Source: Chloroflexota bacterium
GTDB lineage: Bacteria > Chloroflexota > UBA11872 > VXNJ01
Reading direction: 5' to 3'
NCBI GenBank assembly: GCA_965217845.1
Contig: OZ244573.1
Location: 688,806 to 752,805, forward strand
DNA: 64,000 nucleotides
In this document: piece after piece, positions 19,324 through 58,071 of the stretch
Position numbering within the stretch: the stretch's first letter is position 1
Layout: each line of letters begins with the position of its first letter
Made by a program: the position numbers and the translations under genes
The notes under the pieces: generated by a model
Database searches by the model: none
Told to the model about the DNA's origin: nothing
Seen by the model: only the letters and a program-made list of their open reading frames with translations

Positions 19324-19374
19324 CTCCGCCATCCCTAGAATGGCTAGCAAATGACAACTTAATATCCGCAGGGG

Positions 19375-19464
19375 TGCTGAAAGCATCGGCTGAGAAGGAA
19401 AGCTGCAGAAGGGCTTTCCTCCCCTAATGACCTGATCCGGGTAATACCGGCGTAGGCAGACGGA
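19375..19464 (+). ncRNA. TPP (thiamine pyrophosphate) riboswitch
   Basis: Matches the THI-element core: GGGGUGC...CUGAGA (19381-19410), a variable P3, and ACCUGAUCCGGGUAAUACCGGCGUAGG (19429-19455). P1 is closed by uccg/cgga. Lies upstream of ykoF-thiXYZ. Confidence 0.8.
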
Positions 19465-19579
19465 ATCGACCGGAACTTTCGCACCGCACCGCGACATCGG
19501 TGCGGTGTTGGCCTTTCAAAAGGCAGCCTCCCCGCGCGAGAGCTATCGGTGCCCTGGCACCGGGGACGGGTTTCTGCAA

Positions 19580-39400: not shown

Positions 39401-39527
39401 CTCTTATCCAGAGTGGTGGAGGGATTCGGCCCTTTGAAGCCCGGCAACCAGCGCGCTCGGTGACATGGTCCTTTAGAGCGTGGTCAGGTGCCAACTCCGG
39501 CGAGCTGCGAATTCGCAAGATAAGAGG
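39401..39527 (+). ncRNA. SAM-I riboswitch (S-box)
   Basis: Strong match to the S-box consensus: CUCUUAUCcAGAG-GGUGGAGGGA-GGCCC-UGAAGCCCGGCAACC...GGUGCCAA-UCC-GC...AGAUAAGAG, with P1 closed by 8 bp. It is preceded by TATAAT at 39366-39371 and followed by a ~225-nt leader containing a U6 tract (39571-39576). Confidence 0.8.
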
Positions 39528-46188: not shown

Positions 46189-46261
46189 GCCCCCATCGTC
46201 TAGTGGACTAGGATGACACCCTTTCAAGGTGTAGACAGGGATTCGAACTCCCTTGGGGGCA
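46189..46261 (+). tRNA. tRNA-Glu (anticodon UUC)
   Basis: Cloverleaf: acceptor GCCCCCA/UGGGGGC, anticodon stem ACACC/GGUGU with loop CUUUCAA, T-arm AGGGA-UUCGAAC-UCCCU, discriminator A. The 3' CC is encoded but not the terminal A. Confidence 0.85.
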
Positions 46262-46300
46262 CCGGGCGGCGCGGTCACGGCAGTGGCGCGGAGACCTTGA

Positions 46301-50320: not shown

Positions 50321-50770
50321 ATGGGAGCGGTCGTGATCTTGGTACGACGTCCGGTGGGCGCATATCTGGTCCTGGTGGGGCTGGCGGTTGCGATTCACTT
50401 TGTCGCCACCCAGTTCTACGACCCCCCAATCAGCGGCGATTCGGTGGACATTTGGCCGGCGCTCGACGCCCTCATGGCGGTCGCGTTGGTGATCGTGCTG
50501 GCGACTGCGATCCGACGCAAGCAGATGCTCCCCGTCTCATCCGGCGGCCGGGAGGCTACGCGCGAGTACCTGGTTAGCAAATTTCGTTTTCTATTTCGGG
50601 ACCGCGTTGCTGTCCATACTCCTATGGAATTGGGCTGGCGTCGCCATTGCCGACGCCCGCAGCGATGACGGCACCATCTGGGCTTTGATCGATACGGCTT
50701 TGCCGCTTTACATAGGCCAGGCTGGACTCCGTCTGCTGCTGGCAAAGGCACCGCCTTGGGCCGACAGCTG
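50321..50770 (+). pseudogene. small polytopic membrane protein, frameshifted
   Basis: The 115-aa ORF ends shortly after a frameshift near the aaattt run (~50578-50583). The +1 frame continues as a convincing TM helix and tail (ANFVFYFGTALLSILLWNWAGVAIADARSDDGTIWALIDTALPLYIGQAGLRLLLAKAPPWADS) to the stop at 50768-50770. Confidence 0.5.
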
Positions 50771-51147
50771 AACTTGATCGACTAGGGGTCCGATCGACCG
50801 CGATCCCGGTCAAATGGCCCTGCCCAATCCGCGCGCACTCAAACCTGAAACGCCCGTCGGCGCGCCAATTGCCGACCTGCCAATCCCGATCCGCCGCGAT
50901 CACAATCCGGATCGCGATTTCATATGGTTTTGCAATCATGTTGGTGCCGAAAAACCGGAGCGAAATTACGGATTGCAACCGCCCGACTTGATTTCCGTTA
51001 CATATGGGTATCTGCTGGTCCAACGCACATGGTATGCAGGTATTGATATATCGGTTCGTAGGGTTTAATATTTGCTACGAGAATTGATTCATGGTGCATT
51101 GTTTATGGAGCAAACAGCACCGTAATTGCAGTTAGTGAAGGATTCAT

Positions 51148-51729
51148 ATGCAAGACGAGCCAATCGAAGACCAATCGCCGAGCACCGAGCCGGCGGGAGC
51201 TGACGTCGATCCCTTCGCGGTCGTACTTGAGGCCCAACTCGAGGACCGCACCCGGCGCGCGTCTGGAATCGACGCCCAGATCGCCGAGCGGCGCGATGCG
51301 CTCGACGCCGGGATCGCCGAGTTGCAAGCTGCATTTGAAGGCGAGATAGCGCAATTGCGCATGAGCCGACTCGCGCTGCAGGGCGAGATTCGCACCATCC
51401 GCGAACTCCAGCAACGCATGGCAGGGGAGATTGTGGACGATTACGCCAGAACCGACGGGCCAGGGTTCGCCTGGGATGAGGACTGGCCCCGCAACGCCGC
51501 CGACAAGGTGGTCAAACTCCTTCAAAGCGTCGGTCGGCCGCTTCACTACCGCGACATCTACAACCGACTCGAAGCTCTCGGAGTTCACAAATCCCGCAGC
51601 ACAAACCCGGCCGAGGCGCTGCTTCGCAATTTCTATAAGGACTCGCGGCTGTTCCGGCCCCGCCGCGGCACCTACTTCCTGGCTTCAAAGCGCCGCAAAG
51701 CCGACGAAGCAGGCGACGCCGAGGAGTAA
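51148..51729 (+). CDS. hypothetical protein with acidic/coiled-coil N-terminus and C-terminal HARE-HTH-like winged helix
   Basis: 193 aa. The C-terminal VVKLLQSVGRPLHYRDIYNRLEALGVHKSRSTNPAEALLRNFYKDSRLFRPRRGTYFL resembles the HARE-HTH fold (RpoE-delta N-terminal / restriction-associated). It follows a ~380-bp AT-richer ORF-less tract. Confidence 0.5.
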   Translation: MQDEPIEDQSPSTEPAGADVDPFAVVLEAQLEDRTRRASGIDAQIAERRDALDAGIAELQAAFEGEIAQLRMSRLALQGEIRTIRELQQRMAGEIVDDYARTDGPGFAWDEDWPRNAADKVVKLLQSVGRPLHYRDIYNRLEALGVHKSRSTNPAEALLRNFYKDSRLFRPRRGTYFLASKRRKADEAGDAEE

Positions 51730-51955
51730 CCTCGACAACCAAAGAGCTTTCAGGGCGCCGCCGAAGACGGCGCTGCTGAGGCCCGGGCGGGAACCGACCC
51801 GGATTTGCCGCTGGTGATCGCCGGCGGCGGGCGACCGAAAAAATTCGGGAATGAGTTCGACTCAGGCGTTCATGTAGCTAAGAGCGGCAGGCCTGAATCT
51901 GCAGCACCGGGTGGCGCTTCCAAGAACGCTGCCCTGCCCGGCGGCCAACCGCGCT

Positions 51956-52704
51956 CTAGCCCTGGCGCCGCCACGCCAGTTCGTCTTCGAGTTGTTTCTC
52001 CAGGCGGCGCAACGCCTCACGCGTGGACCGCATTTCCTGGAGGATCGTGTCGTAGGGTAATCCGGCTTCGATCTCGCGGGCCCGTTCGGCCTCGTCCCAT
52101 TCGTTGATGATTGCCGCGACGAACGGTTTACGGCCACGAGGCCACCAATGACTATGAAGCTGACGAAATAGATCCAGGCCAGGGGGTTTAACTCCCTGGC
52201 CGAGTCCATGATGTCGGTCCAGCCTTAGAAGCTGATCACCCCAAAAAGGGTCAGGATCGAAGCCTGCAGGCTGCCCCAGTGGAATGGATCGTGGCTGTGG
52301 AAGAAATGGTATCCGGCGACGGCGTGCATGTAGCCGGTGATGCTCATCAGTACCAGGATGTAAAGCACACTGGGCACGGCCCGGACCAATGTAGCCACGA
52401 TCTGGCGCAGTTTCTCGGTGCCCGAAACCATCTGCAGCAATCGGAACAGCCTGACGATGCGCCCGATTAATGCGAATTCGCCGACGAAGGGAATCGCACG
52501 ATGACGCCGCGTGAGGCTTTGGGGTCTGAGATCGAATTGAGTTGGGGGTTGGTCCCTGCAAAGCAGCGGAGGGCAATAGATACTGCTGTCGGTCGAGTTG
52601 AGAGTCGGACCGGCGGTCCCATCTAGATGGTTATGGCAACTGGCCCGGAGGCATTGGCATGCACCCGCAAGCGGGAGGTTGAACGGCAATGCTGCCAGCT
52701 GCAA
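51956..52704 (-). pseudogene. voltage-gated sodium channel, NaChBac/NavBac-like, decayed (N-truncated, in-frame TAA, frameshift)
   Basis: S4 voltage sensor (FALIGRIVRLFRLLQ), S5, pore helix (FHWGSLQASILTLFGV), S6 (NPLAWIYFVSFIVIGGLVAV), and C-terminal tail (LFVAAIINEWDEAERAREIEA...coiled-coil) are recognisable across three ORF pieces. A TAA at 52225-52227 sits where the selectivity-filter Glu codon is expected (TLESW aligns to SF*GW). There is a frameshift near 52120, and S1-S3 are not encoded upstream. Confidence 0.6.
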
Positions 52705-52709
52705 TAGAC

Positions 52710-54353
52710 CTAGGGGCGGGTCTTTGAGAGGGCAATTTCGCGCAAGAAGATGACCACTACAAATCCCAGCCCCAGCGCCACCGCCACGACCACGAAGACG
52801 TCGGTTATGGCGTCGGCGAGCACGGATCGGAGGACTCCAACCAGCTCCGCCGCCAGCTGCGGACCGGTTTCGCCGTGCCCGGCAAGGGCCCCTTGGAGCT
52901 CTTGAAACGCCGCCGGATTAACGAGCGCCTGCGGATTCTCCTGGAGCGCGGCCAGTTGCGACGGCGGGATGGCTTCGGTGATCTGGGATGGCAGCGACGT
53001 CGCAATTCCGGACGCGAAACGGTTGGCCATGTAGGAGCCTAGAACCGCCAAACCCAGGGTCCCGCCAACCGATCGGAAGAATTGCGAGGCCGAGGTTGCA
53101 GCTCCGAGCAATTCGTGTGGAACCGAGTTTTGAACCGCAATCGAAAAACCCGGAAATGTGATCCCCACACCGATGCCGGTGATGGAAATGAATGCCACCG
53201 CCTGCACGAAGGATGTCTCAGCGGTCATGCCCGCGAGAAGAATGACTCCGGCCAGCATGATCCCGATCCCTATTAGCCCCTGCGTCCGGTAGTGCCCGCC
53301 GAATCGGGAAAGGGCCTGCCCGGCCAACGCCGCCGCCACGACCATGCTCAACATCATCGGTGTCAGGAACGAGCCGGAACTGGTGGCCGAGGCCCCGAGC
53401 ACGCCCTGGAAGAACAGCGGGACGAATATGATCGCCCCAAACATGGCGAATCCGGTAATAAACACCGCTGCAATCGATATGCTCACGATCCGGTTCGAGA
53501 AGATTTGTGGCGGCATGATCGGGTCAGCGGCACGCCGTTCGACGACGATGAACGCGGCCAGCATCACGAGCGCCAAAGCCAGAACTCCGATGACCTGCGG
53601 CGACAGCCACGCGTAATTAACCCCGGCCAGTGAAAGCCCCACCAGCAGTGGCACCACTGTCGCCACCAGGAGCACCATTCCGGCGTAGTCCAGGCGGCGT
53701 TGTCGTTTGCGGGGGCGCAAATTGGGAAAGAAGCGCACAAACAGGACCACTACGATCAATCCCAGCGGCACGTTTACGTAGAAGATCCAGTTCCAGGAAA
53801 GGAAATCGGTAATTACCCCGCCCAGTGTCGGACCGATGACCGAGGAAAGCCCGAAGACGGCGGCCAAATAACCCTGGTACTTGCCGCGTTCTTGCGGGGA
53901 AAACAGGTCGCCGACGGTCGTAAACGACATCGCCATGATCGCGCCGCCGCCCAGACCTTGTAGGGCCCTGAATCCAATCAACTGGTCCATAGTCTGGCTG
54001 GAGCCGGCCAGCACCGAACCGACCAGGAAGATGATGATTCCGCCGAGGAAGAATGACTTGCGGCCGTAGAGATCGGAGAGTCGACCCACTATCGGGACGA
54101 ATGTGGTCGACGCCACCAGGTAGGCGGTCGTTATCCAGGTGAACCGGTCAAACCCTCCGAGATCGGTCACGATCCGGGGCATGGCGGTACTCACGATCGT
54201 CTGGTCGAGCGAGGACAGGAACAGCGCCAGCATGAGCCCGCCCATCGTGAAGACGATGTGGCGGCGCGTAAGCGCCGGACGCGCGTCGGGCGGCCCCGAA
54301 CCGGCCAGGGGTTGCTTTTCGGGAGCGTGCGGCGCCCGCACCTTAGGGTTCAT
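52710..54353 (-). CDS. MFS transporter, DHA2 (EmrB/QacA, 14-TM) family
   Basis: 547 aa. The N-terminal motif region (LDQTIVSTAMPRIVTDLGG ... GRLSDLYGRK) and 14 TM segments are typical of DHA2 drug exporters. Confidence 0.85.
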   Translation of the reverse strand: MNPKVRAPHAPEKQPLAGSGPPDARPALTRRHIVFTMGGLMLALFLSSLDQTIVSTAMPRIVTDLGGFDRFTWITTAYLVASTTFVPIVGRLSDLYGRKSFFLGGIIIFLVGSVLAGSSQTMDQLIGFRALQGLGGGAIMAMSFTTVGDLFSPQERGKYQGYLAAVFGLSSVIGPTLGGVITDFLSWNWIFYVNVPLGLIVVVLFVRFFPNLRPRKRQRRLDYAGMVLLVATVVPLLVGLSLAGVNYAWLSPQVIGVLALALVMLAAFIVVERRAADPIMPPQIFSNRIVSISIAAVFITGFAMFGAIIFVPLFFQGVLGASATSSGSFLTPMMLSMVVAAALAGQALSRFGGHYRTQGLIGIGIMLAGVILLAGMTAETSFVQAVAFISITGIGVGITFPGFSIAVQNSVPHELLGAATSASQFFRSVGGTLGLAVLGSYMANRFASGIATSLPSQITEAIPPSQLAALQENPQALVNPAAFQELQGALAGHGETGPQLAAELVGVLRSVLADAITDVFVVVAVALGLGFVVVIFLREIALSKTRP

Positions 54354-54849
54354 TCCGACGCTACGGGCCTAGGGGCCACCGCGCGATTGATCGGCGGCGA
54401 ATCGACAACTATCGAGTCAGGGTCAGCCGCGGCGCAGCGACTCACAGATTCCGACATGGGTTCCAGACACTGCGTTTCGCGACGGGTTGCGGGGAGGTCA
54501 TTGGTTGCAGAAGAAATGGGTCCCCCTCGGACGGATCAATTTTCGGGAACTGATGTCCGATTTGGGCCGATGATTCGTCTCGGTCGGGACCATCGCGGGC
54601 TGCGCCGAGCCAAGTCGGTCAAGGCGGTTAGACGGGCGAGCATTGCTGGGGGCTGATCGCGGACCGGATTGCAATTAACAGCGTGGCAACGCCGCGATCG
54701 GATTCGCAGGAGGGGGTCGGGATTCACGGTCACATTGATAAACCAATCAGCGATTCGACCGCAACCCATGGCCGAATCCGTGTATATTGGCGCCAGCGGG
54801 TCGCCGAATCAAAGGGGCGATAAACGAGTTATTCGGGTCGGAGTAGAGC

Positions 54850-56076
54850 GTGAAGATTTGTTGGTTTCATCTGATGCCGTACCGGCATCTGCCGCCCGAT
54901 TTTGAGAAAAAATACCGCAGCGTCTGGGTAGATCCGCCTAGCCACCTCTACGACGCCGAAAAAGCGCACATCCTCTACAACGAATACCTGGACGAACTCG
55001 AGCACGCTGCCGCGGTGGGGTTTGACGGCATCTGCGTAAACGAGCATCACAACAACGCTTACGGGATCATGCCCTCGCCCAACCTGATGGCCGCCGCCCT
55101 GGTCCGCCGCACCACCGAGGCCGCGATAGTGGTGATGGGCAACAGTCTTGCGCTGTACAACCCTCCGCTGCGGGTGGCCGAGGAATTTGCAATGCTCGAT
55201 GTTGCCAGCGGCGGTCGGTTGGTGGCCGGATTCCCGACCGGCACCTCGATGGACACAAATTTTGCCTACGGTGCCAACCCGGCCACTCTTCGCGAAAAAT
55301 ATCACGAGGCCCACGACCTGATAATCCGCGCCTGGACCGAACCGGATCTGTTCGCGTTCAACGGCAAGTACAGCCAGAACCGTTACGTGAATATCTGGCC
55401 GCGCCCGCTGCAGAAGCCGCACCCGCCGGTGTGGGTACCCGGCAGCGGCAGCGTGGAGACCTGGGAGTGGACCAGCCAGATGAACTACGTCTACTGCTAC
55501 CTGAGTTATTCGGGCTACAAGCACGGCACCAGGGTCATGAAGGGTTTCTGGAAGGAGATGGAGAACCTGGGCGTCGACGATAACCCCTACCGGGCCGGTT
55601 TTCTGCAGCTGGTGGCCGTATCTGAAACCGATGCCAAGGCCGAAGAAGAGTACGCCCCGCATATTGATTACTTCTTCAAGAAGAATTTGCACGTCTACCC
55701 GGGATTCACGCAAGCCCCGGGCTATCGGTCCATAAAGACGCTCAAGAAGGGAGTTGGCAGCAACCTCAGCCGCGCCCAAGCCCGCAAACGCACGGAGATG
55801 AAGTGGAAGGACTTTGTCGACGAGGGCTATGTGATCGCCGGTTCTCCCGATACGGTGGCTGCGCGAATGCGTGAAGCGGTTGAAGGACTGCGCGTCGGGC
55901 ACCTGATGGTTTTGCTGCAGATCGGTAGCATGCCCAAGGATCTGACGATGAAGAACACGGCCCTGTTTGCATCCGAAGTAATGCCGCAGCTACGCGACAT
56001 GTGGAGCGAATACGAAGACCACTGGTGGCCCCAACCCCTGTCCAGCCGGGCCGTCCCGGACCCGATCGTGCAGTAG
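54850..56076 (+). CDS. LLM-class flavin-dependent oxidoreductase (luciferase-like monooxygenase)
   Basis: 408 aa starting at GTG 54850, with TIM-barrel LLM family segments (GFDGICVNEHHNNAYG, MGNSLALYNPPLRVAEEFAMLDVASGGR). Confidence 0.85.
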   Translation: MKICWFHLMPYRHLPPDFEKKYRSVWVDPPSHLYDAEKAHILYNEYLDELEHAAAVGFDGICVNEHHNNAYGIMPSPNLMAAALVRRTTEAAIVVMGNSLALYNPPLRVAEEFAMLDVASGGRLVAGFPTGTSMDTNFAYGANPATLREKYHEAHDLIIRAWTEPDLFAFNGKYSQNRYVNIWPRPLQKPHPPVWVPGSGSVETWEWTSQMNYVYCYLSYSGYKHGTRVMKGFWKEMENLGVDDNPYRAGFLQLVAVSETDAKAEEEYAPHIDYFFKKNLHVYPGFTQAPGYRSIKTLKKGVGSNLSRAQARKRTEMKWKDFVDEGYVIAGSPDTVAARMREAVEGLRVGHLMVLLQIGSMPKDLTMKNTALFASEVMPQLRDMWSEYEDHWWPQPLSSRAVPDPIVQ

Positions 56077-56937: not shown

Positions 56938-58071
56938 TTAATGCGCTACCGTTTCGAACGGATCATTTAATTGAATTCGTTCGCTGCGAATAGCGGATTC
57001 GAACTCGCGCAATCGATCAGCAGCGACATAGTAACGGCCGCGAGCGATGCCGCGCGCTACAAGCAGACCGGCATTGACCAGTGCTTTCAGGTCACGACCA
57101 GCTACCGCCAGTGAAACTTTTGCGAAGTTGCGGTACGAGTGGTTCCGCACCCGAAATCCAAATGAAGCGTCCCACATGGCGCCGACCGTCCGGCCAGGTA
57201 AGCCAAGTCGACGGGCTTCGTGCTCTAACGCGCTCCATCGACGATCGGCTTCAGCGGCCCTGCGCAGCAAGGTGTTGATCTGAAAGTAATGCGCGGTCAA
57301 ATTGAATCGGACCCACGGTCTTGCGTCGCGATCAGGGTTCCACAACCCGGCACCGACTTGGGCCAAGACTTGGTAATACCTTTCGGTATTGCGCCCCAAA
57401 TACTCCTCAATGCTGATGTAATCCTGGGCCAGGTCACCTTGCCGAGCTAAGACCAGCGTCTGCAATCCCCTGGCCATGCGACCGTTACCGTCGCGGAACG
57501 GGTGGATCATGACCAGGTTCAGGTGGGCCATTGCCGCTCGCACCAACACCGGGGAAGTTGAATCAACCGCGCGTAACTCCTTAACGAGTTCATCAATTAA
57601 GGCGGGCACGAGTTGGGGGTCCGGTCCCTGGTATACGATTTCCCCGGTCCGATCCTCTCGCACATAGGCGTCGTTAACCCGCCAACGACCCGGACCCTTG
57701 GACAGGTCGTAGAGCATCATTTGAAAGTGCAGACTTTTGATTAGCGACGCCTCGTAGGTAAACGTCGGATCATCGGCCAATTGCAATACGTATTTCATCG
57801 CATCGCGATAACACGCTATTGCCGCCCATGTTTCTTCCCCTGCATTGCGCGGCTCGGCTCCGTCCACAGCGGCCAGTGCATCGTCAAGTTCAACGTTGAA
57901 GCCCTCGATACTGTTTGAGCCGCGGATAGCACGCGCTGAAGACACCCGCCGCAGCAACCCACCCCAAACTCGGGGTTCGGAAAACCGACCGCGGAGCGCC
58001 GTACGTAACTCATCGAGCTCAATGCACAGTTCTTGTTCCCGGGCATCGAGTATTGGAACGTTGAAGAGCAT
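56938..58071 (-). CDS. Fic-family protein (class II, with N-terminal inhibitory SxxxEG motif)
   Basis: 377 aa with Fic motif HPFRDGNGRMARG and inhibitory helix motif SNSIEG near the N-terminus. Preceded by a ~130-bp AT-rich upstream region (58072-58200). Confidence 0.85.
   Translation of the reverse strand: MLFNVPILDAREQELCIELDELRTALRGRFSEPRVWGGLLRRVSSARAIRGSNSIEGFNVELDDALAAVDGAEPRNAGEETWAAIACYRDAMKYVLQLADDPTFTYEASLIKSLHFQMMLYDLSKGPGRWRVNDAYVREDRTGEIVYQGPDPQLVPALIDELVKELRAVDSTSPVLVRAAMAHLNLVMIHPFRDGNGRMARGLQTLVLARQGDLAQDYISIEEYLGRNTERYYQVLAQVGAGLWNPDRDARPWVRFNLTAHYFQINTLLRRAAEADRRWSALEHEARRLGLPGRTVGAMWDASFGFRVRNHSYRNFAKVSLAVAGRDLKALVNAGLLVARGIARGRYYVAADRLREFESAIRSERIQLNDPFETVAH

Follow-up and report, generated by a model that had tools for sequence, protein, structure and literature searches.

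The window analysed here is a stretch of 64,000 nucleotides, and its minus strand carries, at 51956-52495, the 3′ two-thirds of a gene for a one-domain, six-helix voltage-gated cation channel. The remnant lies downstream of an intact MFS transporter gene and is laid out as follows:

52710-54353, minus strand: MFS transporter gene, intact, 547 aa, the upstream neighbour (Pfam MFS_1, 1.4e-54)
52496-52709 (to 52716), minus strand: filler, i.e., ~214-220 nt of unrelated DNA that separate the MFS stop codon from the first channel codon with homology
52228-52495, minus strand: piece 1, with the S3-S4 loop, S4, S4-S5 linker, S5 and P1 up to the Ser-Phe of the filter (from the Ion_trans and NaChBac alignments)
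52225-52227, minus strand: TAA nonsense codon at the filter Glu, position 3 of T-F-E-G-W-T-D (from the alignment with NaChBac and the orthologues)
52126-52224, minus strand: piece 2, continuing the frame of piece 1, with the filter GWTD, the P2 helix and the start of S6 up to Asn
52124-52125, minus strand: site of a 1-nt deletion in an S6 Leu codon (CTG to C-G), which shifts the frame (from the base alignment)
51956-52123, minus strand: piece 3, in the shifted frame, with the end of S6 (FVAAIINEW), the neck and the C-terminal coiled coil

Read on the minus strand, the peptide of piece 1 ends in ...IPFVGEFALIGRIVRLFRLLQMVSGTEKLRQIVATLVRAVPSVLYILVLMSITGYMHAVAGYHFFHSHDPFHWGSLQASILTLFGVISF and is directly followed by the TAA, after which the peptide GWTDIMDSARELNPLAWIYFVSFIVIGGLVAVN extends up to the frame change. 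Past the frame change, the peptide FVAAIINEWDEAERAREIEAGLPYDTILQEMRSTREALRRLEKQLEDELAWRRQG runs into a stop codon, the original TAG having been kept at 51958-51956. When the TAA was taken as Glu and the frame was mended, a repaired translation of 184 aa was obtained, which matched the Pfam Ion_trans family (PF00520) with an E-value of 2e-28 (99.7 bits vs. a gathering cut-off of 25 bits; positions 98-239 of the 241 in the profile). Its best match among solved structures was NaChBac (PDB 6vwx; residues 106-270 of 274, E 1.2e-27), in an alignment spanning the S3-S4 loop, S4, the S4-S5 linker, S5, P1, the filter, P2, S6 and the C-terminal neck and coiled coil. The similarity of the remnant to Ion_trans and NaChBac is far above chance. 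An earlier, sequence-only reading of this DNA had recognised a decayed voltage-gated channel gene with S4, S5, the pore helix, S6 and a coiled-coil neck spread over three open reading frame (ORF) pieces, and the alignment of the merged translation upholds this statistically and covers each of these elements. No Rfam family was matched by the remnant region, and a promoter and terminator scan from 51700 to 52900 yielded no promoter-like site and a single terminator-like hairpin at chance level.

A protein search revealed intact homologues of 265-275 aa, the closest of which (P0001, 275 aa, 85% identity) is encoded at locus L002. P0001 is a complete one-domain protein with six transmembrane helices (6TM; Ion_trans at 156 bits, profile positions 2-238 of 241), and the DNA of the remnant is 83.6% identical to L002 8282-8818 over all three pieces. 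The gene order in L002 (i.e., luciferase-like, MFS, channel, an oppositely oriented HARE-HTH-like gene, a small membrane protein, zinc ADH, RecA) recurs in the more distant L012/L013 (encoding P0006) and L014 (encoding P0002) and, lesions apart, in the window as well; the MFS gene, which in L002, L012 and L014 directly precedes the channel gene, serves as synteny anchor. Across this block, window and L002 DNA are 81-84% identical (dS of about 0.6-1.3), which marks L002 as a sister species or genus. The loss proposed in the sequence-only reading is thereby documented, with a broken remnant in the window and an intact syntenic orthologue in the sister species, and the search of related genomes for the orthologue and its neighbourhood that it had suggested was answered by L002, L012 and L014. 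Going by the one source that names P0006, the clade of these orthologues is probably Chloroflexota. Scanning the contigs of GTDB-representative genomes with P0001 gave only distant homologues at 31-41% identity (from Sulfurovum, Marithrix and others), and no further relatives were found among metagenome contigs with a degenerate HDPFHWG pattern.

Given that BacNaV homologues are patchy among bacteria and that the 5′ junction of the remnant abuts unrelated filler, the remnant could be conceived as a foreign channel fragment, delivered by horizontal transfer or a mobile element, rather than as a decayed resident gene. However, three related lineages have the intact gene in this very position, with the same MFS and HARE-HTH-like genes on either side, the dS between remnant and L002 amounts to 0.64 next to 0.70-1.31 for the neighbouring genes, and no transposase, repeats or tRNA flank the remnant, so that a foreign origin is left with practically no probability. 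The channel gene is a vertically inherited resident that was lost only in the window's lineage.

Comparison of this resident gene with its intact orthologues exposed at least four lesions, i.e., the TAA in the filter, the 1-nt deletion in S6, a 6-nt deletion in the neck, and a replacement of the 5′ part that took away codons 1-94 together with the promoter. The TAA aligns with the Glu of TLESW in NaChBac and with that of TFEGW in the intact orthologues, confirming the placement of a stop codon on the filter Glu at 52225-52227. The earlier suggestion that it arose from GAA by one substitution fails, since the filter Glu codon is GAG in all intact orthologues and TAA therefore needed two substitutions. 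Directly after the stop, the window retains a Gly codon (GGC, 52224-52222), and the same Gly is present in all orthologues. The frameshift previously estimated at ~52120 indeed exists as a 1-nt deletion between 52125 and 52124, in S6, where the window, L001, L003 and L004 read AACC-GTTC vs. AAC CTG/CTT/CTC TTC in L002, L012 and L014; it lies outside any homopolymer. The lesions named in the sequence-only reading thus stood, and the alignment with the orthologue added a fourth that it had not listed, i.e., the 6-nt in-frame deletion at 52080/52079, by which Arg-Asn of the neck has gone.

Moreover, S4 reads RIVRLFRLLQ in the remnant, in which Gln replaces the fourth gating Arg, vs. the complete RVVRLFRLLR in P0001. 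Consequently, the window copy does not hold a complete S1-S6 (S1-S3 being absent and the fourth S4 Arg lost), nor a frame that is open through the filter (T-x-E-x-W) and S6 (owing to the TAA and the S6 deletion). No channel can be made from it, because the voltage sensor is gone, translation ends ahead of the filter, and S6 lies in a different frame.

Homology with the channel gene of L002 starts exactly at window position 52495 (L002 8282, codon 95), and the MFS homology with L002 ends at window position 52717. Between these points, L002 has ~400 nt, comprising a 112-nt intergenic region (presumably including the promoter) and S1-S3 (codons 1-94), whereas the window has ~220 nt without detectable similarity. 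The earlier claim that no S1-S3 coding sequence exists upstream is borne out, since tblastn for S1-S3 between 52496 and the MFS stop codon (52710-52712) returned nothing significant, and since 139 of 300 shuffles matched the observed score in a local DNA alignment of the filler with the 5′ part of the orthologue. On the same two results, the idea of the filler being a strongly diverged S1-S3 region was rejected, and comparison with the 5′ parts of L002, L012 and L014 revealed no DNA or protein similarity either. L001 carries exactly the same filler, and L003/L004 carry it with 98% identity. It does not occur a second time in the window or the related loci, matches no Rfam family, and gave no match as a probe against viral contigs or metagenome contigs. 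A short palindrome, GGACCGCCGGTCC, is situated within it (52619-52630).

As to these other assemblies, L001 (a 1.68-Mb contig at 16x, sample ERZ25067264) agrees with the window at 99.7% identity along 16.5 kb, and L003 and L004 (ERZ25072670 / ERR13605531) are 99.2-99.5% identical to the window; at such identities, all three are therefore genomes of the window's species. Base-by-base alignment revealed that they share the TAA, the 1-nt deletion in S6, the 6-nt deletion in the neck, and the breakpoint at 52495/52496 with the filler behind it, meaning that all known conspecific genomes carry all lesions. L003 and L004 stem from a sample of low coverage (2x) and probably share their reads, so that they count as one independent replicate in which the differences may partly be errors. 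In both (L003 7150-7430), one T is missing from a T5 run at ~52247, before the filter, by which the ORF ends four codons earlier; either decay has gone one step further here, or the missing T is an error due to the low (2x) coverage. In L003, the luciferase-like, abhydrolase and Fic genes are in fragments, which suggests assembly errors.

Long-read assemblies may hold indel errors. The extra T5 deletion in L003/L004 could be such an error, and the sequence-only reading had allowed for a sequencing artefact that hides an intact pore-only channel. Under such a sequencing or assembly artefact, the true locus would have Glu at the filter and no indel, and would encode a short channel (S4/S5-pore-S6-coiled coil). 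Nevertheless, the TAA lies two substitutions away from GAG and recurs unchanged in three assemblies that go back to different samples; the S6 deletion is likewise shared and outside any homopolymer. Even a repaired frame would still be without a promoter, a sensible start-codon context and S1-S3. Furthermore, the window's lineage has changed at otherwise invariant sites and diverges within the species at about the synonymous rate (see below), as relaxed constraint would have it. Since the lesions are shared across assemblies, the TAA is two changes from GAG, and the S6 deletion is outside a homopolymer, a sequencing artefact is excluded for practical purposes, and an intact pore-only channel at this locus has to be regarded as extremely improbable.

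Relaxed constraint was seen in modest counts of changes, both between and within species. When amino-acid changes were polarised with 7 outgroup sequences, 14 fell on the window branch vs. 4 on the P0001 branch (Tajima chi2 5.6, p 0.02; binomial p 0.03). Five of these 14 are at sites that are invariant in 17 intact homologues, including the fourth S4 Arg (to Gln), an S5 Tyr (to His), the filter Thr (to Ser) and an S6 Phe (to Leu). The ratio of nonsynonymous to synonymous changes points the same way (17:18 on the window branch vs. 4:13 on the L002 branch), but is not significant on its own (Fisher p 0.13). Within the species, remnant and filler differ between the window and L004 at 1.97% of sites, compared to 1.0% of the synonymous sites (p 0.14) and 0.22% of the nonsynonymous sites (i.e., a 9-fold difference, p 4e-6) in three flanking genes. 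This is the pattern expected of unconstrained DNA.

The same comparisons bear on the timing of the loss. The pairwise dN/dS between the remnant and L002 is 0.117, similar to that of the neighbouring genes, so that most of the divergence must have built up while the gene was functional, and the loss is recent relative to the L002 split. It is, at the same time, older than the divergence of the conspecific genomes. Taking the counts at face value (omega of ~0.3 vs. ~0.1), the gene may have spent roughly a fifth of the window branch as a pseudogene, although this is a rough estimate.

The decayed locus still gives rise to an annotated gene. A spurious ORF of 159 aa (52225-52704) begins with a TTG at 52704, 5 nt past the MFS stop codon, and ends on the filter TAA; its first ~70 residues are filler and match no family. 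Gene calling picked it up in each of the three assemblies (with 155 aa rather than 159 aa in L003/L004), and a protein search retrieved P0023 (159 aa, from another assembly) as the first ORF piece of the same remnant. The corresponding protein cluster includes three products of this kind, i.e., P0023, P0042 and P0043, the last of which is identical to the ORF in the window.

The position of this ORF so close behind the MFS gene and its being called throughout, together with the 83.6% identity that the remnant DNA has kept with the orthologue, might be read as signs that the remnant is kept for a function, either as an S4-S5-P1 fragment made from the 159-aa ORF, or as a pore produced by read-through of the TAA plus programmed frameshifting. 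We consider this very unlikely. The ORF opens with unrelated filler, both differences between the window and L001 in the remnant are nonsynonymous in the ORF frame, another indel shortens the ORF further in L003/L004, and within-species divergence approximates the synonymous rate. TAA is not known to serve as a recoding codon in bacteria, and no slippery heptamer is evident at AAACCGTTC. Finally, a fragment that stops before the filter cannot conduct ions. The 159-aa ORF is without plausible function.

To place the gene within its family, the sequences in the source data of Shimomura et al. 2020 (eLife 9:e52828; PMC7041947) were used as reference. The best BLASTP matches of P0001 were the AnclNav ("ancestor-like" BacNav) channels of Nitrosococcus halophilus (50% identity) and Mariprofundus ferrooxydans (47%); its identity was 39% to CavMr, 35% to NaChBac and 33% to NavAb (32-33% for the NavAb and NavMs types). 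In a neighbour-joining tree (distance only; Kimura distance, 270 columns, 300 replicates), P0001 and its relatives clustered with the AnclNav sequences of Nitrosococcus, Mariprofundus and Kangiella with 92-94% bootstrap support, while the NavAb-like and Bacillus groups formed a separate cluster with 72-79%; support at the deeper nodes was moderate (79%). The gene is thus a member of the AnclNav group and not of the NaChBac group, as far as a distance tree with moderate deeper support can tell. In the earlier description as a NaChBac-type sodium channel, the superfamily therefore stands, but the group is corrected by identity, by the tree and by the Gly4 in the filter.

This filter reads TFEGWTD in P0001, TFEGWTT in the next clade (P0006) and SF*GWTD in the window, and fits the predicted ancestral, TLE(D/S)WTD-like sequence of AnclNav, in which position 7 is polar or acidic. 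Like CavMr of Meiothermus ruber and NavPp of Plesiocystis pacifica, the orthologue is a one-domain 6TM protein, and it has the filter type T-[LF]-E-[GD]-W-T-D in common with AnclNav, its Gly4 being as in CavMr (TLEGWVD). The intact orthologues differ from these channels in having Phe2 rather than Leu2 and in the absence of the long P2-S6 loop of CavMr and NavPp, resembling in the latter respect the short-loop Nitrosococcus/Mariprofundus subgroup; the window copy differs in being dead. NaChBac (Bacillus halodurans BH1501) shares the superfamily, the topology and the C-terminal neck and coiled coil, but has the filter TLESWAS (Ser4, with a non-acidic position 7) vs. TFEGWTD in the orthologue, and belongs to another tree group. 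NavAb and NavMs are members of the same superfamily as well (remnant E-values of ~1e-19 to 1e-21 among solved structures), and differ from the orthologue by the filter TLESWSM and a separate clade. The second-best class among the solved-structure matches consisted of Cav1.x chains. As regards domains I and III of eukaryotic Cav channels, the TMEGWTDVLY of Cav1.1 domain I is closely like the (T)FEGWTDIM around the dead codon, but Cav channels are four-domain 24TM proteins, and the likeness to the remnant is limited to the pore module.

Ca2+ selectivity, both in CavMr (TLEGWVD) and in mutants of NavPp, is reported to depend above all on Gly4 of the filter, and Phe2 occurs in the characterised set only in the TFEDWTD channels of Halomonas and Teredinibacter, both of which gave no currents (PMC7041947). 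Judging from its Gly4, the ancestral protein is predicted to have been Ca2+-selective and CavMr-like.

A second pseudogene is located 1.4 kb from the channel remnant, at 50333-50771 on the plus strand. It derives from a gene for a small membrane protein of 143-145 aa without a family in Pfam or NCBIfam, which is intact and syntenic in L002, L012 and L014, and which was disrupted by a +1 insertion at ~50574 (CTGGTTAGC vs. CTGG-AAGC) that L001 and L004 have in common with the window. In its place, gene callers predict an ORF of 111 aa on the other strand, which is spurious. It could be imagined that the channel and this protein, encoded two genes away, were partners that were lost together, the latter being, e.g., a novel auxiliary AnclNav subunit, in which case an entire module for voltage-gated Ca2+ signalling would have disappeared with the two genes. 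A functional link is unsupported, channel homologues at 52-53% identity having unrelated neighbours, and we rate such a partnership as improbable.

Convergent with the channel remnant is a gene of 193 aa (51148-51729, plus strand) that matches HARE-HTH only weakly (E 3.5e-4, short of the gathering score). No other gene of the block evolves as fast (dS 1.31 and dN 0.15 vs. L002), and its position is conserved in all related loci. On the other side of the remnant, L002 carries a response regulator, a histidine kinase and a PQQ-repeat gene (L002 2926-6023) between the luciferase-like and MFS genes, corresponding to ~54354-54850 in the window. A Fic-domain gene (window 56938-58071, minus strand) is situated between a short-chain dehydrogenase and the abhydrolase gene in the window, L001 and L014, and is absent from L002 and L012. 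Further features elsewhere in the window are the following:

39401-39526, plus strand: SAM riboswitch (73 bits, above the Rfam gathering score)
19360-19476, plus strand: TPP riboswitch (66 bits, above the Rfam gathering score)
46189-46263: tRNA-Glu(ttc)

Taken together, the channel locus is almost certainly a non-functional pseudogene of the AnclNav group of the BacNaV family, i.e., a resident gene that was inactivated in the window's lineage and has been drifting since. In the ancestor, as in the sister species, a 275-aa protein was encoded just downstream of the MFS transporter gene; it would have assembled into a tetramer, with voltage sensors formed by S1-S4 and with TFEGWTD as its filter. 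A rearrangement put ~214 nt of unrelated DNA in place of the promoter and S1-S3. In addition, the filter Glu codon changed from GAG to TAA, one base was lost from S6 and six from the neck, and the remnant has been under neutral drift since its inactivation.

The locus is accordingly an ordinary, fairly recent and lineage-specific pseudogene of a known channel family, and no new kind of element, and it matters little beyond annotation. For annotation, it means that the 159-aa "Ion_trans" proteins in public collections (P0023, P0043) are a pseudogene artefact and should not be counted as short or pore-only channels. As a clean and datable lineage-specific loss of a vertically inherited channel, it also helps to explain the sporadic look of BacNaV-family genes. 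The more useful by-product lies in the intact orthologues, a small clade with a TFEGWT(D/T) filter, in which Gly4, as in the one native Ca2+ channel known from prokaryotes, occurs together with the Phe2 of channels without currents, and that is thereby a candidate for Ca2+ selectivity.
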